From contig JACQEX010000030.1 of assembly GCA_016200345.1 (NCBI GenBank), positions 6,242 to 70,241 on the forward strand: a stretch of DNA of 64,000 nucleotides, read 5' to 3'. A model generated the notes under the pieces. That model made no database searches and had not been told where the DNA came from. It saw only the letters and a program-made list of their open reading frames with translations. The position numbers were made by a program, and so were the translations under genes. This document shows, in pieces, positions 28,478-43,965 of the stretch; positions within the stretch are counted from its first letter, which is position 1, and each line of letters opens with the position of its first letter. This DNA is from Nitrospinota bacterium. GTDB lineage: Bacteria; Nitrospinota_A; UBA7883; JACRGQ01.

Positions 28478-29572
28478 TTAAATAAGAGCGTCGTCCGGGC
28501 AGTCGCCAAGCTGAACCTGTCCGGACAAATACATTCCTGCCTGCCTGTTGTATTCGATGCACCGGCAGTTAGCGCAGACCCCGGCGGCGTAATTGCCGTT
28601 CAAGGCGAGGATGACTTCCCTATGGCGCGGCGAGTTCCAAACGTCCTTAAAGCGCGCGTTGTTAAGGTTTCCTATGCAATACCTTTCGTTTCCGATGTGC
28701 GGCTGGCAAAGGTACACCCCGCCGTCGTAATTTATCCAGGCCGTGGCCCTTGTCATTATGGAGGCGCATGAGTCCGGCGGCGGCTCGATTCCGATTCTAT
28801 AATCCTTGGCCGCGTAATGGTGCAGGCCACGGTTCAAAATGGAGCGCACGTTTGTGGTTTTTGGGTCGAAAATATCAATGTTCCCCTCCAAGTCGGCGCG
28901 AATTTGCGCCGCCTCGGCCTCGGAAAACTCCAGCCCCTTTTTCTCGTAGTCTATGGCAGGGATAAAAATCACGTAGTCAAAACCGGAAGCCATGGCGTTT
29001 TTGTAGACGTCCGCCACCTCGCGGTGGTTCACGCGGTTTATGACGCACCGCGCGCCGACGACGACGTTTGAGCCGTTCCCCTTGACCATGTTTGGAAGCT
29101 GAAACTGTTTTTTGAACTGGTCGCTTCCGGTTATGGCCTTGTAATGCTCCTCGTTTGTCGAGTAAATGGAAACGGCTATGTAGTTAAAGCGCCTCAACAA
29201 CGGGACGTCGGCGTCTTTTATGGCGATTCCGTTGGTGACAAGGGCGACCTCGACCCCGTTGTCCAGCAGTTTACCGGCGTATTTATCCCAGTTTTTCACC
29301 ATCGTCGGCTCTCCCCCGCCGGCCAAATAGGCGCTTTTTACGCCAAGCGACAACAGGTCGTCAATGGTTGATTCAATCTGCTCGTCGGAGACCCGGAGGT
29401 ATTTCTTTCTTCGATTGCCGTAGGAACAATGGACGCAGTCGTAATTACATGCGGAGGTCCAGTGGAACTCGACCGACACCGGCCCGAGAGAGAGCGGATC
29501 CGCCCCCTTGCGCCGTTCAAAGTGGGGCACGAATTTTTTTGCCGAAAGCAACGTCTCCAGGTTGTATTTCAT
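28478..29572 (-). CDS. Radical SAM protein (non-B12, Cys-rich C-terminus)
   Basis: CNYDCVHC motif and a C-terminal CANCRC cluster. Start set at the internal ATG (MKYNLE) to avoid overlapping the upstream gene. Confidence 0.7.
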   Translation of the reverse strand: MKYNLETLLSAKKFVPHFERRKGADPLSLGPVSVEFHWTSACNYDCVHCSYGNRRKKYLRVSDEQIESTIDDLLSLGVKSAYLAGGGEPTMVKNWDKYAGKLLDNGVEVALVTNGIAIKDADVPLLRRFNYIAVSIYSTNEEHYKAITGSDQFKKQFQLPNMVKGNGSNVVVGARCVINRVNHREVADVYKNAMASGFDYVIFIPAIDYEKKGLEFSEAEAAQIRADLEGNIDIFDPKTTNVRSILNRGLHHYAAKDYRIGIEPPPDSCASIMTRATAWINYDGGVYLCQPHIGNERYCIGNLNNARFKDVWNSPRHREVILALNGNYAAGVCANCRCIEYNRQAGMYLSGQVQLGDCPDDALI

Positions 29573-29597
29573 TTTGTCAGATATTTCCGAAAGCCGC

Positions 29598-30266
29598 CTA
29601 AAACGACATCTCCATGACGCGGCCCACGACGTCCAGCTGTTTTTCATGGTCAAAAGAATTGTTCTCCGCCGTCCATTCGACAAACGCCGGTTCGCACACC
29701 AAAACCTTGTCGAACTCCAGATTTTTTATGTCGGGATATTTGAACACGGCCGTCCCGCCGGGGGAAACCGTGCTTTCGCCGTCGCCTACGAGCCTCCCGA
29801 CAAGGACAAGCCCCTCGGAGCTGGTGATGTTGAGCGCGGCGATGTCCGCCAGCTCGTTGCTCCCGGCCACCGCAAGTTTTTGCCACCCCCTGCTTTTGCA
29901 AAGCTCCAGCTGGCTCTCCACCACTTTTTGGGCGACCTTATAAGTTCGCAGGGTGTTGCCCAAATATCTTGCGGTGAGCCTGCCTTTCTCGGCGAACCCC
30001 TCCGGCGTCATGTAATAAAGCCACCTCTTTGCGCTAACCTGTCGCGCCTTAATCCACCCCTTAGCCATAACCTTTCGCATGAACGAGTGGGCAAGGCCCG
30101 CCGCTATTCCCGTAAACGCCGTTATTTTTTTTTCGGAGATGTGCGGAAACTTTTCCACCAGGCTGAAAATGTGCATTACCACGGCGTCGTCCGCAGACGC
30201 CTTGACCGACGAATATGGGGAAACCGGCGAGAGATCCGGACTTTCCAAGGTTTGTTTGTTTTTCAT
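29598..30266 (-). CDS. Hypothetical protein with N-terminal winged-helix-like domain (putative regulator)
   Basis: MHIFSLVEKFPHISEKKITAFTGIAAGLAHSFMRKVMAKGWIKAR resembles a wHTH. Unassigned C-terminal domain. Confidence 0.35.
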   Translation of the reverse strand: MKNKQTLESPDLSPVSPYSSVKASADDAVVMHIFSLVEKFPHISEKKITAFTGIAAGLAHSFMRKVMAKGWIKARQVSAKRWLYYMTPEGFAEKGRLTARYLGNTLRTYKVAQKVVESQLELCKSRGWQKLAVAGSNELADIAALNITSSEGLVLVGRLVGDGESTVSPGGTAVFKYPDIKNLEFDKVLVCEPAFVEWTAENNSFDHEKQLDVVGRVMEMSF

Positions 30267-30350
30267 AAGAATTTGGGCGCGCCTACGGCCTCACTGGTTG
30301 TCAAGCTCTTCACGCAATCCATAAAATTAAAAAGGCAAAACTAAAAAGGG

Positions 30351-30890
30351 TTAGTACGGCTCCAATAAATCCGATTCAAGCTCCGTGACCAAAGCCCTTT
30401 TAAATAAATCCAATGAGACGATAAACCGCCCCGTCTTGGGGCTTATGCGAACAAATTGCCCGTACGCACCGGCCAGCGGCCCCGCCACAACGTGCACGCG
30501 CTCCCCCGCGACCATCGGGGTGTACGGCAGTTCGTAAACGGGCGCCGGGGAACAGGCCATCTTTTCCAGGCGCAACACCTGGTCGTTTGGGATGACGGCA
30601 GGACTGCCGTCTTGACGGACAAACCCCAAAACGCCTTTGTGAGAAAACAGCATCTTGGTTTCTACGGCCTCGATGTCGGCTTCAACAAACACGTAGTTGC
30701 TCAACAGCGGTTTTATTACGGCAACCTTCTGTCCGTTCCTTCTTTTCCACACGTCCCTTGCCGGAACGCTGACTTTTAAGCCGAAATGATTTTTGAAAAA
30801 TTCCGAGACGCTAAATTCATTTTGATGCCTAACCCTGAGCGCAAACCACCCGCAATCAACGGTGTAGGGCGAAACCAGCGCATTGCTCAT
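30351..30890 (-). CDS. NusG-family paralog (RfaH/UpxY/LoaP-like operon-specific antiterminator)
   Basis: 179 aa. NGN domain (WFALRVRHQNE...) and a C-terminal KOW (GERVHVVAGPLAGAYGQF). Shorter than housekeeping NusG and sits at the 5' end of the polysaccharide operon. Confidence 0.75.
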   Translation of the reverse strand: MSNALVSPYTVDCGWFALRVRHQNEFSVSEFFKNHFGLKVSVPARDVWKRRNGQKVAVIKPLLSNYVFVEADIEAVETKMLFSHKGVLGFVRQDGSPAVIPNDQVLRLEKMACSPAPVYELPYTPMVAGERVHVVAGPLAGAYGQFVRISPKTGRFIVSLDLFKRALVTELESDLLEPY

Positions 30891-31000
30891 AATGTGAGCA
30901 TTGTACCCCTAAAGCGGTGGAATTGGCAAATTTTATTTTGTTGTGCGACTGAAAAATGACCTTTTCAGCTATATTCATATTTATGCGGAATTAGCAATAA

Positions 31001-31981
31001 TTATGTAATGGGACAGGCGTCGTATCGGGCGGAACCATAACGATTAAAATGTTCCGTCAAAGAGTCGAGAAACGGCTCGTGTAACATCCTAGCCTCTCTT
31101 AGCGTCGGCAGGTCGCACCTGCCGTCCAGCAATATCCCCTCCACAACCGAACTCGTCGTTTCGCTTTGCAAATAGTCGAACCTTGCGTTGTGACGAACCC
31201 AAACCCATTTGCCTACGCGCGTGGCGATTTCATAGGTGTTGTCGGCCTCGCGGATTTTTAGGGCCACTTCCGCCGACGTTATCGTTATCTCCACCGGCGA
31301 GATAACTTCCCCGCAATAAAATGAAAAACCGTTCGCCCCCAAACTCCCGGAAAGCTCGCCGGAAACCTCCTTGAATCCGGGTCTTTTTGACTCAAGAATT
31401 TTCTTGTCAAGACCGCCGTTTGAAACAACCAAACCCTCGCAATCGGTCAGGTAGGCAAGCAGGTCGAGAAAATGAAGTCCGTTGCACGCCATACCCCAGC
31501 TACCGCCCGCGACTTTCAACTCAATCGGCCCCGTCCCTTTTAGCGCAGTTTTGATTTTTTTGTAGACTGGATAAAGCCTTCTTGGATGATTGACCCAGGC
31601 TCGAATATTTTTGCGCTCCAGCAGTTTGCCGACGTCCTCAAAATCGGATTTTTTTTGAAATACCACTTTTTCCAAAATAAGATTTTTAACGCCCTTCTTC
31701 TCCGCCAATTCCCTCACCAAATTAGAACGAACGTCGGCGTTGGTGGCGACTATAGCGAGGTCCAACTCGTCAGACAGACCCGAGACTCCGTCTCGGACCA
31801 CCAATTCCATGGCCTCGCTTCCGACAATCTCTTTAAACCTGGACAGGGCCGTATTTATAGCCCCTTCAGAGCGCCCCACCACCTCTATGCTTGCACCAAT
31901 CCCAAGTCCGGCCAACCCCTGCAAGTATCTGCTTCCGATTTGGCCGGGGCCGATTAACGCGATTTTGAACGTCTTGGTCAT
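31001..31981 (-). CDS. Gfo/Idh/MocA-family oxidoreductase
   Basis: KIALIGPGQIGSRY Rossmann N-terminus and an EKV motif. First gene downstream of the palindrome array. Confidence 0.75.
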   Translation of the reverse strand: MTKTFKIALIGPGQIGSRYLQGLAGLGIGASIEVVGRSEGAINTALSRFKEIVGSEAMELVVRDGVSGLSDELDLAIVATNADVRSNLVRELAEKKGVKNLILEKVVFQKKSDFEDVGKLLERKNIRAWVNHPRRLYPVYKKIKTALKGTGPIELKVAGGSWGMACNGLHFLDLLAYLTDCEGLVVSNGGLDKKILESKRPGFKEVSGELSGSLGANGFSFYCGEVISPVEITITSAEVALKIREADNTYEIATRVGKWVWVRHNARFDYLQSETTSSVVEGILLDGRCDLPTLREARMLHEPFLDSLTEHFNRYGSARYDACPIT

Positions 31982-32008
31982 ATTTTAGGTATTGGTAGTG
32001 GCTTAGCA

Positions 32009-32096
32009 TTACTCACAATATGAGCAACTTTTTACTCATATTGTGAGTAACTATTTGCTCATCATATGAGCAATGTTTTACTCATGCAATGAGCAA
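32009..32096. promoter_or_regulatory. Array of four 19-bp palindromic operator-like sites (TTRCTCA-N5-TGAGYAA) at exact 23-bp spacing
   Basis: Sites start at 32009, 32032, 32055 and 32078. Copies 2 and 3 are perfect palindromes. The array ends 28 bp upstream of the 31981 start codon in the operon leader. Confidence 0.5.
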
Positions 32097-32141
32097 CAAG
32101 CCGCAACGATGCAATTTGTCCTTTATAATCAAATAGATTAA

Positions 32142-34886
32142 TCAGGGCGCGACTAATTCCACAAAGGCAATTCTGCCTGGGGAATTTTTTAAAATCTTGA
32201 TTTTCCCCACGAAGGCCATATGCTCTATCCAACTGCTAAACCGCATCAATTTTTTATGCAACGACCCGTTGGGATCCTTCTCGAGAGTCCCCGTATTCAC
32301 GTCAATGATGATGTATCGAAAACCGGCGGACTTTAAAATACGGTATATCTCCTCGTCGCTTTCCCCGGCGCTCATGCAACTAAAATTGTCCAGCATCTGG
32401 TCGTCATAGAGACGTCTGTCGTTTTTGACGATAAAATAGCTTATAAAGGTGCCGATTCTATACACGTAGTTTTTCTCGGTCAGGGTTTCCGGGTGGTCGT
32501 TGACCTCCTTTGCTATGGACGAATAATCAGGCGCGAGGTTTTCGATGGTTTTGGCCTCGTCAAAGAGGCCGAATGCAAAGCCCGTCATGGACTTGTTGCC
32601 AAAGGTCTGGTTGCGAAAGGCCACAAAGGTTGTTAGCGACACAAAAATCAACACCCAGCTCACGAAGCGCACCGGGGCGGGGCTGTTTGCAATCAAGTAA
32701 TCCATAATCAGGGCAAACAGCAAAAAGCCGCCGATTCCGTACCATATTATGCCGTCCGAAACCAGCATCCAAAAAACCCACGACGCGGAGCCTAAAAAGA
32801 CGGCCAGGGACAAGAGGGGGTTGCGAATTTTAACCGAGGCGTACCAATAGACGGCAAGCAACATCGCGACCATCACCCCAATTTCCGCGGCAAACCCGGG
32901 GGAAAGGCTTATGGAGTTCAAATTGCCAAAAGGGTTTAACTTTATTCGCAAGGCCCAGAATATCCAAAATGAAAACCATACGAACACCGTCGCCCCAGCG
33001 GCGATGGTCTCGCCGCGAAACCAGATTGCCATCGCCTCTTTTTGCCGTTCGATCCACACCACCGGCCCAGCGGCGATGGTCCCGCCGCGAAACCAGATTG
33101 CCAGCCCTATCAACGCCGGCAGAATGGCAAGAAAAGTGTAGCCAATGTCTACCCAAAAACCGTGGGTGGTCGTGTTCATCGTGTCTTTCCAAGGCAAAGC
33201 GATTAATTTGTCCAGCCCCGAATCGTATCCCGCATACCTACCCGCCTCCTCCTTCAAGCCGGTCGGACTGACGCATTCCTCCGCCGTTTTGCCCGATGTG
33301 TGCAAATCCGGGCTTAAAGAATTGGCGTTTGCCCCCTTCAACATGGCACTCAAATGAAAGTTTTTTGCCTGAAACCCATTGGAAACGGCCCAAGGCGCAA
33401 AGGTCAGGGCGGACAGGCCGACAAAAATCCCAAAACGCAGGCCAAATTCCAAAACCCTGGACTTGGCGCGCGCCATGGCAACAGCCCCGATGACGACGGC
33501 TAACAGGGCGCAGTAGCGGGAAAGCGTCGCGATTTGCGCATCGTCCAAAATGCCGTCCAGCCGAAGGGTGCCGCTTTTCAAGGTGACAAAAATGAACGCC
33601 AGAAAAAACGCCGCGGCTCCGGTGCGTCCAAGGTAAATTCCGGCAATGGCGACAGCCATGGGAAAAATTAAAAACGTGGCGGAAAATTTTATTCCAAAGG
33701 AGAAACCGGCAAACAGAGAGGCCAAAACGAGCCATTCAAGCTCGATCTTTTTCGCCCTGGTCGCCTCAACGTCGGGGGTCGCCCCGACCAAAGGCGCTTC
33801 TTTTGAAACCCTTTCGCGCCATTCAAAAAAGCAATAGACTGAAAGGGCCAGAAAAAAGAGCAACGTCGGGTCGGTCTTCATGTCGGTGGCCGACTGCCAC
33901 ATAAGCATCGGGGTCAGGTAGAGCACCGTGGCCGCGGTAATTCCCACCTTGTCAGAGAAAAAGCGACGGCCGATCGCCACGATGGCCAAAACGGCGCATA
34001 CGCCGCCGAAGTACGAGAGATACAGCGCGATGGTCGCGTTGTCGAAAAGCAGAAAACCAAGCGAAATGATGGGGAAATAGTTAAAGCTCCTTCCCCCGCT
34101 CAGAAGAAAATGGTATTGCGAAATAAGCTTGGGAATATTTATGTACACACCCATGTCGTCCCATCCCAGCGGTATCGGGCGAATCAGGTCGAAGAAATTC
34201 AGCGCAAAGACGAAAGTAAGGAACAAGAACAGGTATTTGCGCGGGGAAAACACCCTACTTCTAATTTGAATTTTATGGGAGACAAGCCGGCCCCACCAGG
34301 CGAAGGCCGTTCTCCACCGCCAGACCAAGACCGCGATGACGGCGAACCACACCACCGGGGTGTAAAGCAGTTGCGCGTGGCCGACCACGAACATCCCGGC
34401 TACGGTCGTCATCATCCCGGTTCCAATCGAAAACAGCGAGTCTTCCAACATGGCGTCGAAAGCGAGCTTTCCAAGCACGGCCTTTCCCTGCACGTAGAAG
34501 AAGGTTGCGAAAAACAGCAGGCCGAGGGTCATGGCGGTAAACCAAAACATCACGTTTAATTCCGCGGTAAAGACGTCCACCTTGTCCGCGAGGCCGCTTT
34601 TAGCGAGATAATACGAGGAAATCCACACCACGAGCGCCCCGAAAAAAACCAACACCCAAAGCGGCGTGACGTTAAACTTCCACTCGTCCTTGTCGCGATA
34701 GAAATACTGAACCAAATCAAGGGCAAAAAACAGCCCGACGCACATCGCCAGCATGCTCGTCGTCGGCTTAAACTCCTTCAGATTTGCCATGTGCTCCGGA
34801 TGGGAGATGAAATACTGCTGTATGACGTAGCCGGCCCAACTAAGGGCCAACAGGGAAAAAATTACCGAGAAAATCTTTCTTTGCAT
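32142..34886 (-). CDS. Large polytopic membrane protein, GT-C-like glycosyltransferase fold (tentative)
   Basis: 914 aa, more than 20 predicted TM segments, large loop regions. Contains an internal 24-aa tandem duplication. Confidence 0.55.
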   Translation of the reverse strand: MQRKIFSVIFSLLALSWAGYVIQQYFISHPEHMANLKEFKPTTSMLAMCVGLFFALDLVQYFYRDKDEWKFNVTPLWVLVFFGALVVWISSYYLAKSGLADKVDVFTAELNVMFWFTAMTLGLLFFATFFYVQGKAVLGKLAFDAMLEDSLFSIGTGMMTTVAGMFVVGHAQLLYTPVVWFAVIAVLVWRWRTAFAWWGRLVSHKIQIRSRVFSPRKYLFLFLTFVFALNFFDLIRPIPLGWDDMGVYINIPKLISQYHFLLSGGRSFNYFPIISLGFLLFDNATIALYLSYFGGVCAVLAIVAIGRRFFSDKVGITAATVLYLTPMLMWQSATDMKTDPTLLFFLALSVYCFFEWRERVSKEAPLVGATPDVEATRAKKIELEWLVLASLFAGFSFGIKFSATFLIFPMAVAIAGIYLGRTGAAAFFLAFIFVTLKSGTLRLDGILDDAQIATLSRYCALLAVVIGAVAMARAKSRVLEFGLRFGIFVGLSALTFAPWAVSNGFQAKNFHLSAMLKGANANSLSPDLHTSGKTAEECVSPTGLKEEAGRYAGYDSGLDKLIALPWKDTMNTTTHGFWVDIGYTFLAILPALIGLAIWFRGGTIAAGPVVWIERQKEAMAIWFRGETIAAGATVFVWFSFWIFWALRIKLNPFGNLNSISLSPGFAAEIGVMVAMLLAVYWYASVKIRNPLLSLAVFLGSASWVFWMLVSDGIIWYGIGGFLLFALIMDYLIANSPAPVRFVSWVLIFVSLTTFVAFRNQTFGNKSMTGFAFGLFDEAKTIENLAPDYSSIAKEVNDHPETLTEKNYVYRIGTFISYFIVKNDRRLYDDQMLDNFSCMSAGESDEEIYRILKSAGFRYIIIDVNTGTLEKDPNGSLHKKLMRFSSWIEHMAFVGKIKILKNSPGRIAFVELVAP

Positions 34887-34977
34887 CGCGTAAGCTTACC
34901 GCACTTTACGCGAAGAAAAAAGGGAGCGAGAAAAAAAAATCGGCGTTGACTTGGGGCCGCGAACATGGCATCATGAT

Positions 34978-34996
34978 GATAATGATTATCATTATC
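34978..34996. promoter_or_regulatory. Fur box (GATAATGATTATCATTATC)
   Basis: 18/19 match to the classical Fur consensus GATAATGATAATCATTATC and perfectly palindromic. Lies in the divergent region between the 32142..34886 (-) gene and the fur-family gene, with a TTGACT -35-like hexamer at 34946. Confidence 0.65.
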
Positions 34997-35024
34997 CAGA
35001 GAAGACGTGACCGATAGCCAGCCG

Positions 35025-35438
35025 ATGGCGGCTTTTAGGCTCCACATCGCCAAAAAGGGGCTTCGCCACACCAAGCAGAGAGAGGAAATCCTTTCAGCCC
35101 TTTTCTCGTCCAAAAAACACGTCACGGCGGAGGAGCTTTTCGATATCCTCAGGTCAAAGGTGGCCGGCATCGGCTATGCCACGGTGCAAAGAAACCTGAA
35201 CCTTTTGCGGGAGTGCGGACTGGCCGAGGAGGTAAAAATTGGCAACCAAAAGGCCCGCTACGAGCCGAAACGCGGTAAGGAACACCACGACCACCTCATA
35301 TGCCTTAAGTGCGGAAGGTTCATAGAGGTAAACGACCCGAGGCTGGAAAAACTACAGGACGGGCTGGCGAAGGCAAACGGCTTTGCGCCGCTAAGACACA
35401 AACTGGAAATATACGGAACCTGCGCCAAGTGCGCATAA
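35025..35438 (+). CDS. Fur-family transcriptional regulator (Fur/Zur/PerR)
   Basis: HTKQREEIL...HHDHLICLKCGRFIEV...CAKC: DNA-binding helix, metal-site HHxH and two CxxC pairs. Alternative GTG start at 35007. Confidence 0.8.
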   Translation: MAAFRLHIAKKGLRHTKQREEILSALFSSKKHVTAEELFDILRSKVAGIGYATVQRNLNLLRECGLAEEVKIGNQKARYEPKRGKEHHDHLICLKCGRFIEVNDPRLEKLQDGLAKANGFAPLRHKLEIYGTCAKCA

Positions 35439-35445
35439 AAGAGGG

Positions 35446-36537
35446 GTGGGAATGAGTTATTCGAATCTGCTGTTACTGGGCGCAATCGCCGGCTTTACAA
35501 TTTTCCTCGGCCTTCCCGTGGCGATGCTGACGACACGCCCGAAATTCCGCGCGTTCATGACCGCCCTTTCCGCAGGCGTTCTCATTTTCCTGCTGGTCGA
35601 GATATCCAACAAGTCGTTCGAGATTGTCGAGGAGGCGGTGAAAAGTTATTTTGTCGGCCAGTCCGGCCCGGCGCCAACCGCGCTTTGCCTTATTTTCTTC
35701 CTTGGGTTCACCGCCGGAATGTTCGGTCTGACCTTCTTTGAGGAAAAATTTGTCGGAACCGCCAAGGACTCCCCGGAAAAAAACAGCTCCAAATCCCTGT
35801 CAATGATGATAGCCATCGGCATAGGCCTGCACAATTTCGGCGAAGGACTTGCCATCGGCCAGGAATACGTCAGCGGCGCGATATCCCTCGCATACCTCCT
35901 TATAGCTGGCTTTGCGCTCCATAACGCGACCGAGGGATTCGGCATCGCGGCGCCGCTAAGGATGGAAAAGGTGGATTGGAAATTTTTGGGCCTTGCCGGC
36001 CTTGTTGGCGGCGGCCCGACGTTCGTTGGCGTTCTGGTCGGCTCCGTTTACTACTCGCGCCAGTTGGAACTGCTGGCTCTTTCCCTCGCCGCCGGTAGCA
36101 TCCTTTACGTGGTCGGGGAGCTGTTGCACCTCGGAAAAGTGCACGGACACCATAGAACGGTCATGGTCGGACTCCTGACCGGATTTTTCATCTCGTTTGC
36201 CTCCGACGCGTTCATAGAGGTCGGCACGGCGGTCACCGCCAATAAAAAGGTTCCGTCAAAGATTTATCAAGTCGAGGCCTCTGAATTCAAATTCACCCCT
36301 TCGCATTTTGAGGCGGTCCAGGGGGAGACTCTGCGGTTTGAGATTACTAACAAGGGGACGGAGAACCACGAGTTTGAAATGCCGGATTTAAAAACGGAGG
36401 TCGTGCTCACTCCGGGCGCCAACGCCGTCGTTACCGTGCCCGACCTGAAAGTTGGCGAGTACCTTATTAGGTGCGACCTGCCCGGACACCTTGAGCACGG
36501 GATGAAGGGCGAGTTGGTGGTCAAACCTAAAATTTAA
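35446..36537 (+). CDS. ZIP-family metal permease fused to a C-terminal cupredoxin-like domain
   Basis: ZIP signature helices (GLHNFGEGLAIG, HNATEGF) over residues 1-250. The C-terminal ~100 aa (TPSHFEAV...YLIRCDLPGHLEHGM) show a cupredoxin Cys-His...His-Met-like pattern. Confidence 0.65.
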   Translation: MGMSYSNLLLLGAIAGFTIFLGLPVAMLTTRPKFRAFMTALSAGVLIFLLVEISNKSFEIVEEAVKSYFVGQSGPAPTALCLIFFLGFTAGMFGLTFFEEKFVGTAKDSPEKNSSKSLSMMIAIGIGLHNFGEGLAIGQEYVSGAISLAYLLIAGFALHNATEGFGIAAPLRMEKVDWKFLGLAGLVGGGPTFVGVLVGSVYYSRQLELLALSLAAGSILYVVGELLHLGKVHGHHRTVMVGLLTGFFISFASDAFIEVGTAVTANKKVPSKIYQVEASEFKFTPSHFEAVQGETLRFEITNKGTENHEFEMPDLKTEVVLTPGANAVVTVPDLKVGEYLIRCDLPGHLEHGMKGELVVKPKI

Positions 36538-43131: not shown

Positions 43132-43159
43132 TTGACATTGTAAAAAGCTATTGTATAAT
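43132..43159 (+). promoter_or_regulatory. Near-consensus sigma70 promoter (TTGACA-N16-TATAAT) upstream of the TetR gene
   Basis: TTGACA at 43132..43137 and TATAAT at 43154..43159, followed by an AT-rich imperfect palindrome ATTACTTAG..ATGAGTGTAAT before the RBS GGAGG. Confidence 0.45.
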
Positions 43160-43224
43160 AACTATACATTAAATCGTTATTACTTAGTTTTAATGAGTGT
43201 AATATAACCATTGGAGGCGATAAA

Positions 43225-43965
43225 ATGAAAATATCCAAGGCACAAAAGGACAAAAATAGGCAAAAGCTTATTTCAGCCGCCGTGGACGTAATCACGGAAA
43301 AAGGGTTCCAGTCCGCCACCATGCGCGAAATCGCCAAAAAAGCCGGGCTTGCGGAGGCGACAATATATAAATATTTCCCGACCAAGGAAAAACTCGTTTA
43401 CGCCTATTACGAGCAAACCCAAACCGTGGCCGTCGAGAGAGCCGCAAAAGTTAAGGGGGTTGAAAAATTCACCCTTCGCGAACGATTCCAACTCTTGATT
43501 GACACGGGACTTGAGGCGTTCCTAAACGACCGCGAGTTTGTGCGCAAGACGTTCGGGGTGGCCTTCATATCCCCGGCCGGATATTTTGGCGGAACCTCCG
43601 AGGTAAAGAGATTGTTCGCCAACGCGGTTGCAGATTTGGTTGAATCCGCCGAAATACGGCGCGAAATACCGGAACAACCGTTCAAAGCGTTCGTTCCCGC
43701 CCTATCTTGGGATTACTATCTTGGCGTGGTCACATTTTGGTTAAAGGACGAATCCGAAAACTTTTCCGACACCACCTTGCTAGTCGAAAAAAGTCTGGCT
43801 GTCGTTGAGGCCGTGTTAAAAAGCGGAGTGCTCTCCACCGGGGCGGAATTCTTAAGCTTCCTATACAGGTCGCACGTGTCGCGCTGGCTGGACGTGGCTG
43901 GTAAAGCGTTTTGCCAGCCGGGAAAGAATGAAAAGAAAACGGGGCGCCGTCATGCAAAAAAATGA
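43225..43965 (+). CDS. TetR-family transcriptional regulator
   Basis: N-terminal HTH (ISAAVDVITEKGFQSATMREIAKKAGLAEATIYKYFPTKE). Confidence 0.8.
   Translation: MKISKAQKDKNRQKLISAAVDVITEKGFQSATMREIAKKAGLAEATIYKYFPTKEKLVYAYYEQTQTVAVERAAKVKGVEKFTLRERFQLLIDTGLEAFLNDREFVRKTFGVAFISPAGYFGGTSEVKRLFANAVADLVESAEIRREIPEQPFKAFVPALSWDYYLGVVTFWLKDESENFSDTTLLVEKSLAVVEAVLKSGVLSTGAEFLSFLYRSHVSRWLDVAGKAFCQPGKNEKKTGRRHAKK

Follow-up and report, generated by a model that had tools for sequence, protein, structure and literature searches.

MexR, a member of the MarR family, has two operator sites of the form GTTGA-N5-TCAAC. Rex-family proteins are redox repressors in which a winged helix (wHTH) is joined to a Rossmann NADH domain, and their palindromic operator, ROP, has the consensus TTGTGAA-N4-6-TTCACAA. 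The lambda cI operators OR1, OR2 and OR3 lie 23–24 bp apart from centre to centre and are bound cooperatively by adjacent dimers. Nitrospinae are the main marine nitrite oxidisers; our searches found no published work on the regulation of their glycan loci, and nothing relevant on a NusG paralog with a MarR partner, on EPS-associated MarR regulators or on Nitrospina NusG. A further point of comparison is UpxY of Bacteroides, where opsX sites form hairpins in the non-template strand (PMC11685472).

Here we describe a glycan locus that resembles each of these systems in part. It lies in a 64,000-nucleotide stretch of Nitrospinota DNA (the window, meaning the whole stretch analysed), in which a sequence-only reading had pointed out a tandem array of palindromes in the leader of the operon. 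The features of the locus are collected in Table 1.

Table 1. Features of the locus, with their positions in the window.
Feature	Position	Strand	Description
Winged-helix (wHTH) protein, 222 aa	29598..30266	minus	MarR_EPS-like N-domain, long helix, Rossmann-like C-domain; proposed binder of the palindromes
Conserved non-coding element	30278..30305	minus	CTTGACAACCAGTGAGGCCGTAGGCGCG; just upstream of the wHTH gene, separate from the palindromes
Specialised NusG paralog, 179 aa	30351-30890	minus	clear NGN domain (PF02357)
Fifth, conserved operator copy	30883..30901	minus (sense)	ATGCTCA-catta-TGAGCAA; left half abuts the -10, right half includes ATG 30890
NusG-paralog/wHTH promoter	30900..30929	minus	TTGCCA, 18 bp, TACAAT; fifth site directly after
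GFO_IDH_MocA-type oxidoreductase, 326 aa	31001..31981	minus	directly downstream of the array
Operator copy A	32009..32027	minus (sense)	TTGCTCA-tattg-TGAGTAA; 27 nt upstream of ATG 31981
Operator copy B	32032..32050	minus (sense)	TTACTCA-caata-TGAGTAA; spacer is the reverse complement of the copy A spacer
Operator copy C	32055..32073	minus (sense)	TTGCTCA-tatga-TGAGCAA; spacer plus T gives TATGAT, candidate -10
Candidate sigma-70-type promoter	32061..32089	minus	TTGCAT (32089-32084), 17 bp, TATGAT (32066-32061)
Operator copy D	32078..32096	minus (sense)	TTGCTCA-ttgca-TGAGTAA; spacer plus next T gives TTGCAT, candidate -35
PMT_2-like membrane protein, 914 aa	32142-34886	minus	upstream of the array; ATG at 34886

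Four palindromes lie in tandem ahead of a glycan operon

The palindromes TTACTCAcaataTGAGCAA, TTACTCAtattgTGAGTAA, TTGCTCAtcataTGAGCAA and TTACTCAtgcaaTGAGCAA begin at 32009, 32032, 32055 and 32078 of the window, confirming the positions, sequences and exact 23-bp period that had been reported for them. All four are perfect 19-bp matches to TTRCTCA-N5-TGAGYAA. Tandem Repeats Finder calls them as a single array at 32009-32097 with a period of 23, 3.9 copies and 72% matches between units, and its score of 94 makes this the top-scoring repeat of the window. When up to two mismatches are allowed, the motif is matched five times in 64 kb against 0.38 matches expected, a count that was reached in none of 100 dinucleotide-preserving shuffles. 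The array is not an assembly artefact, since the same four sites recur, identical base for base, in a second and independent assembly, which Logan made from another run (SRR12113410, locus L132).

Upstream of the array lies the stop of the 914-aa PMT_2-like gene (32142), and 27 nt beyond the array end is the ATG of the GFO_IDH_MocA-type gene; the gap that separates the two genes measures 160 bp. Copy B is an inverted duplicate of copy A, and because their spacers are reverse complements, they make up a larger, near-perfect palindrome of 42 nt (32009-32050); in the predicted minimum-energy fold of the RNA, B pairs with A, in place of two small hairpins. The idea that the 23-bp register puts all the sites on one face of the helix is wrong: at 10.5 bp per turn, 23 bp correspond to 2.19 helical turns, so that neighbouring sites are rotated by about 69 degrees and the outermost two lie on nearly opposite faces.

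On the minus strand, the array is followed by the genes for the oxidoreductase, the NusG paralog and the 222-aa protein, and then by radical-SAM/SPASM, SDR and TylF-type methyltransferase genes. The operon further includes genes with DegT, NeuB, UDP-GlcNAc 2-epimerase and cytidylyltransferase domains, whose presence points to a glycan of the nonulosonic-acid type. On the far side of the 914-aa gene, an exact 19-bp Fur box, GATAATGATAATCATTATC, lies at 34978-34996, between the ATG of that gene (34886, minus strand) and a fur gene on the plus strand (35007-35438), which is followed by a ZIP-cupredoxin gene. Given its position just downstream of a plus-strand TTGACT-17-CATCAT, a promoter-like site ahead of the divergent fur, this box may chiefly autoregulate fur.

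A fifth copy marks a conserved NusG-paralog promoter

A fifth copy of the motif, missed in the sequence-only reading, is present at 30883-30901 (ATGCTCAcattaTGAGCAA on the sense strand), at the promoter of the NusG-paralog gene. The curated NCBIfam models closest to this paralog are UpxY, LoaP and RfaH, and its scores lie below the cut-offs of all three (89.8 against 100 bits, 65 against 125 and 53.9 against 144.5, respectively). With this copy, the motif is found at just two adjacent promoter regions in 64 kb, and the neighbouring genes scanned are of glycan-biosynthesis types, which led us to reject a reading of the sites as iterons or REP elements. The earlier suggestion of an iteron-like array is unsupported on the same ground, the motif not being dispersed in the window; moreover, no replication gene was noticed nearby, and the four-site array is found in no other locus.

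We compared the window with seven other Nitrospinae loci (L001-L005, L008 and L009), whose NusG paralogs are 47–74% identical. One layout is shared by all eight loci: a TTGACA-like -35, a spacer, a -10, GCTCA or a close variant of it, 4 nt, and ATGAG. The spacer between -35 and -10 measures 17–18 bp in seven of the eight (in L009 it was counted as 15), and the distance from the -10 to the ATG is exactly 9 nt in every locus, including the window. None of the eight has a Shine-Dalgarno sequence before this ATG; elsewhere the genome of the window does have such sequences, for example GGAGG before the TetR gene. From the 9-nt distance in every locus and the missing Shine-Dalgarno sequence, we infer that the NusG-paralog mRNA is leaderless or nearly so. 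In L001 and L002, the gene callers had picked other in-frame starts of the NusG paralog, further downstream.

A divergently oriented gene lies upstream in three of the loci (L002, L003 and L009), which leaves the NusG-paralog promoter as the only one there; the left half-site thus lies upstream of the expected start and is not expected to be transcribed. Throughout about 80 kb of orthologous loci, matches with at most one mismatch occur only at the position of this promoter, and the motif is absent at the locus of a distant NusG paralog (29% identity) that has no wHTH neighbour. Conservation of the site at this promoter is partly confounded on both sides, in the right half-site by the coding sequence (Met-Ser-Asn) and in the left by nearness to the -10 box.

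The four-site array has a narrower distribution. It is absent from all seven other Nitrospinae loci, and a metagenome scan for two sites at 23-bp pitch returned only one unrelated low-complexity contig. Conservation at orthologous loci, which the sequence-only reading had put forward as a check, is therefore borne out for the single palindrome (eight of eight loci) and not for the four-copy array, which is confined to the lineage of the window. None of the other loci fetched has a GFO_IDH_MocA-type gene upstream of the NusG paralog. As a possible origin of the gene in the window we considered relocation of a copy as found in L002, and neither of the GFO_IDH_MocA-type genes of L002 fits, the best match having 24% identity over 157 residues. 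With no array in the other loci and an oxidoreductase gene that is not orthologous to those of L002, the four-copy array seems to have brought an added gene into the regulon in this lineage alone.

The stretch just before the wHTH ATG contains another conserved element, GCTTGACAAnCAGTGAGGCCG(G/T)AGGCGCGCC, some 30 nt long and distinct from the palindromes, in each of the seven loci compared (the window, L001, L002, L003, L005, L008 and L009). The window has no second copy of it. With its invariant GCC-GnA-GGC mini-hairpin, the element recalls the ops site of RfaH and the non-template hairpins of Bacteroides opsX (PMC11685472). At 30278-30305, it is a candidate site for pausing or for loading of the NusG paralog, and for loading a better one than the palindromes.

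A winged-helix protein is encoded beside the conserved site

The gene after the NusG paralog is readable in the window and in six of the other loci, and in each of them it encodes a wHTH homologue of 222–240 aa; the sequence of L004 stops soon after the NusG paralog. Residues 27-117 of the 222-aa protein match TIGR04176, "MarR family EPS-associated transcriptional regulator", with E = 1.9e-13 and 50 bits, below the cut-off of 88. A Pfam scan of the protein gave no match, including none to the MarR, Rex or CoA-binding families, and a search of solved structures by sequence gave nothing below E = 0.2. In the AlphaFold model (pLDDT 75), a winged helix (residues 19-86) is followed by a long helix (88-125) and an alpha/beta Rossmann-like domain. 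Foldseek against the PDB placed MarR-family proteins at the top and matched Rex-family repressors over the full length, with low TM-scores of about 0.3.

The recognition-helix region of the protein is nearly invariant among homologues. A profile search returned 825 cluster representatives at E <= 1e-10, mostly of 200–220 aa, and all eight family members sampled have the same sub-threshold MarR_EPS match; judged by these profile matches, the family is sizeable, unnamed and uncharacterised, sister to MarR_EPS and set apart by an extra C-domain. Locus L010, which begins at a contig end, encodes the wHTH homologue furthest removed from that of the window (48% identity), and the 240 nt available upstream of this gene contain no TTRCTCA site. 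A palindrome of another kind, ACTAC-N8-GTAGT, is present there at 150-175.

Two nearby proteins had been named as possible binders of the array, this wHTH protein and a TetR encoded at 43225..43965. Our analysis favours the former, on the strength of its synteny with the site, its MarR_EPS-like N-domain and its MarR/Rex-like fold matches, and speaks against the latter. The TetR gene is 11 kb away and heads unrelated genes (kinases and a diguanylate cyclase), the sole motif match near it has three mismatches and falls inside coding sequence, and the gene calls in the stretches fetched around the orthologous loci include no member of the TetR family. The palindrome of its own promoter is N7-spaced, with different half-sites. 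That promoter, TTGACA-17-TATAAT (about 43133-43161), is followed at 43179-43203 by ATTACTTAGTTTTAATGAGTGTAAT, an ATTAC-N15-GTAAT palindrome that does not share the N5 spacing and is probably TetR's own operator.

The array may contain its own promoter

The spacers of the array suggest a further function. In copies D and C, the spacer and the T that follows it supply, in the same register, a candidate -35 and a candidate -10, and the two hexamers fall in adjacent spacers because 23 = 6 + 17. Scored with a sigma-70 position weight matrix that is a rough approximation, this candidate reaches 10.7 bits, which puts it in the top 0.026% of window positions and makes it the best in the intergenic region; the NusG-paralog promoter scores 12.6 bits with the same matrix. 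A consensus promoter scan did not list the candidate because its -35, TTGCAT, matches the consensus at only three of six positions. The four-operator array may therefore contain a promoter of its own, enclosed by the sites and with a predicted start near 32054. We also considered a promoter downstream of the array and rejected it, as the sole -10-like hexamer there (TAAAAT) abuts the ATG.

Similar palindromes accompany other genes in many phyla

No cognate motif had been known to the sequence-only reading, yet near-identical TACTCA-N5-TGAGTA sites are common, in tandem, at the promoters of small Xre and DUF4143 ATPase genes of many phyla. At least 68 loci of Clostridia/Oscillospiraceae (such as L019, L032 and L049) contain aTACTCA-N5-TGAGTA-TTGACA-nn-TACTCA-N5-TGAGTA-TAAT next to an HTH_3 (Xre) gene of about 70 aa, an arrangement in which two operators at 25-bp pitch are interleaved with a sigma-70 promoter (TTGACA, TATAAT). 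Double or triple copies of TTTACTCA-N5-TGAGTAA at 21-bp pitch lie directly upstream of AAA_14 + DUF4143 ATPase genes of about 395 aa in Verrucomicrobiota, NC10, Planctomycetota, Kuenenia, Myxococcota, Binatia, Elusimicrobia and others (for example L064, L080, L102, L105, L122, L123 and L130; TTGCTCA variants in L097, L039 and L048). Among the matches listed in a genome-wide flexible-gap scan, these 25-bp and 21-bp pitch classes, both unrelated, dominate.

Since nearly the same palindrome occurs beside Xre and AAA_14/DUF4143 genes, the half-site alone does not identify the family of the protein that goes with it. These loci show that TACTCA-N5-TGAGTA recurs as an operator type in several phyla.

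Probable operators of a wHTH regulator and alternative explanations

We consider it probable that the palindromes are duplex-DNA operators of the MarR_EPS-like wHTH regulator encoded in the operon, and that the array was built from a conserved autoregulatory operator. The four sites are read as extra copies of the wHTH operator on the ground that the conserved promoter of the operon has one copy in each of the eight loci. An alignment of 12 sites has a nearly invariant CTCA/TGAG core around variable spacers, with an inverted repeat in the range of about 16–20 bp used to recognise operators, and an operator over a promoter is found at the NusG-paralog promoter in eight of eight loci; for the four-site array, the promoter beneath is a candidate only. 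In these sequence terms the proposal of an operator array for a dimeric protein fits, with conserved half-sites, variable spacers, no compensatory changes and a palindrome on each of the eight promoters. It also agrees with the tandem, promoter-overlapping use of nearly this palindrome beside Xre genes in other bacteria.

The same alignment bears on whether the element is read as DNA or as RNA. The palindromes might fold in the leader, as RNA hairpins or within the non-template strand, and in that form recruit or assist the NusG paralog, in the manner of the leader hairpins of LoaP or of the UpxY pause hairpins and ops sites. There is some reason to think of this: the operon encodes such a paralog, the leader folds strongly (z = -7), imperfect sites yield G-U wobbles on the sense strand and no A-C mismatches, and nascent RNA hairpins aid the recruitment of UpxY (PMC11685472). 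We nevertheless hold it to be unlikely. In the 12 aligned sites 88% of cells pair, but there are zero compensatory changes, and the stems are conserved in sequence while the 5-nt centres vary, which is the reverse of a typical RNA element; the absence of A-C mismatches is not significant, as about 0.7 would be expected. The left half of the conserved site abuts the -10 and is not expected to be transcribed where this is the sole promoter. A hairpin of 19 nt is also too big for a transcription bubble of 11–12 nt, in which a bubble hairpin would span -11 to +1, and the seven orthologous loci that have no array still need to recruit their NusG paralogs. Downstream of the NusG-paralog gene there is also the separate, conserved ops-like element, and a search of 29000-36000 against Rfam at E <= 1 returned only two chance-level eukaryotic matches. 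A symmetric dimer that recognises duplex DNA is therefore favoured over an RNA hairpin: the half-sites are conserved, compensatory changes are absent, and the left half precedes the inferred start.

Operators in duplex DNA could still belong to another factor: the TetR at 43225-43965, a regulator encoded elsewhere, or the NusG paralog if it acts together with the duplex upstream. This seems rather unlikely to us: the wHTH gene is the only one of DNA-binding type that accompanies the site in every locus with readable neighbours, and the TetR, whose family is missing from the gene calls in the stretches fetched around these loci, has a different palindrome of its own. The near-identical palindromes that go with unrelated Xre and AAA_14/DUF4143 proteins in other phyla count in its favour, as does a genome coverage of 64 kb; neither an Xre nor a DUF4143 gene, however, is among the window proteins scanned. 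The array might also be a neutral tandem repeat that arose recently when the ancestral operator was copied locally, with no regulatory role of its own. Although it is restricted to this lineage, and A and B form an inverted duplicate pair, we find this highly improbable, given that none of the eight half-sites has decayed, whereas spacers and linkers differ from unit to unit (72% matches between units), a pattern that indicates selection on the half-sites, and that the spacers of D and C give promoter-like hexamers in register. A more elaborate scheme, in which the wHTH protein and the NusG paralog together form a promoter-proximal loading or specificity device at the start-site palindrome, with a loose resemblance to phage Q, and the array, a promoter set into operator spacers, is an ultrasensitive, ligand-gated switch for the 30-kb operon, strikes us as quite improbable; if true, it would be a new two-tier cassette controlling both initiation and elongation, typical of Nitrospinae.

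With the palindromes taken as operators of the wHTH regulator, the locus could work as follows. The 222-aa protein, whose gene lies two genes further down the operon, would bind the palindromes as a dimer. In the ancestral layout, conserved across Nitrospinae, one 19-bp operator starts inside the -10 box of a sigma-70-type promoter, spans the predicted start and includes the ATG of the apparently leaderless NusG-paralog mRNA, and the bound regulator would occlude RNA polymerase, resulting in autoregulation of the NusG-paralog/wHTH/glycan operon. In the lineage of the window, an extra oxidoreductase gene upstream of this ancestral unit would have gained four more operators at 23-bp pitch. Occupancy of D and C by the regulator would mask the in-array promoter, and occupancy of B and A would cover the start of the transcript (the first ~45 nt) and also block read-through from the upstream gene. 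Cooperative binding of neighbouring dimers is conceivable, given the example of lambda repressor and its operators 23–24 bp apart, and release of the protein from its sites may come about through a ligand of nucleotide type, bound by the Rossmann-like C-domain.

The outcome is a concrete regulon model with five parts, namely the 19-bp operator, the candidate wHTH regulator, the apparently leaderless NusG paralog, the candidate ops-like site and the four-operator array. Most likely this is ordinary gene regulation and not a new kind of mechanism, with a regulator and a motif that have not been described before.

Comparison with known systems

The arrangement has much in common with that of MarR-family repressors: the wHTH protein is encoded in the unit that it seems to control, and the sites are inverted repeats with 5-bp spacers, several of them adjacent and overlapping a -10 box and start. 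It departs from that family in the size of the predicted binder (222 aa, with a Rossmann-like C-domain), in its sub-cut-off match to TIGR04176 and lack of a Pfam MarR match, and in a different half-site. In domain order and size the protein is similar to Rex, to which its full-length Foldseek matches and an 18–20 bp palindromic operator also relate it. Here, too, there are differences, as no Rex or CoA-binding Pfam family is matched, the first beta-alpha turn reads VAGSNEL without GxGxxG, the TM-score is about 0.3, and the half-site is TTGCTCA (TTRCTCA/TGAGYAA) and not TTGTGAA; protein and sites therefore do not qualify as Rex and ROP.

The array itself is reminiscent of the lambda cI operators, which are likewise tandem, comparably spaced, placed over promoter elements and open to cooperative binding, but it involves an unrelated protein family, has four sites and not three, and has no divergent promoter pair. 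With the Xre and DUF4143 sites it shares near-identical half-sites, the 5-bp spacer, the tandem arrangement and the interleaving with -35 and -10 elements, and it differs from them in its period (23 bp against 25 and 21 bp), its neighbouring proteins and its phylum. Compared with UpxY/UpxZ (PMC11685472), the partner here is a protein of the wHTH DNA-binding type in place of UpxZ, the NusG-paralog mRNA is seemingly leaderless, and the palindromes do not look ops-like. What the locus shares with UpxY/UpxZ and with RfaH/ops is a long glycan operon with a locus-specific NusG paralog at its head and a small partner gene after it, and a candidate ops-like element with a mini-hairpin conserved within the operon.
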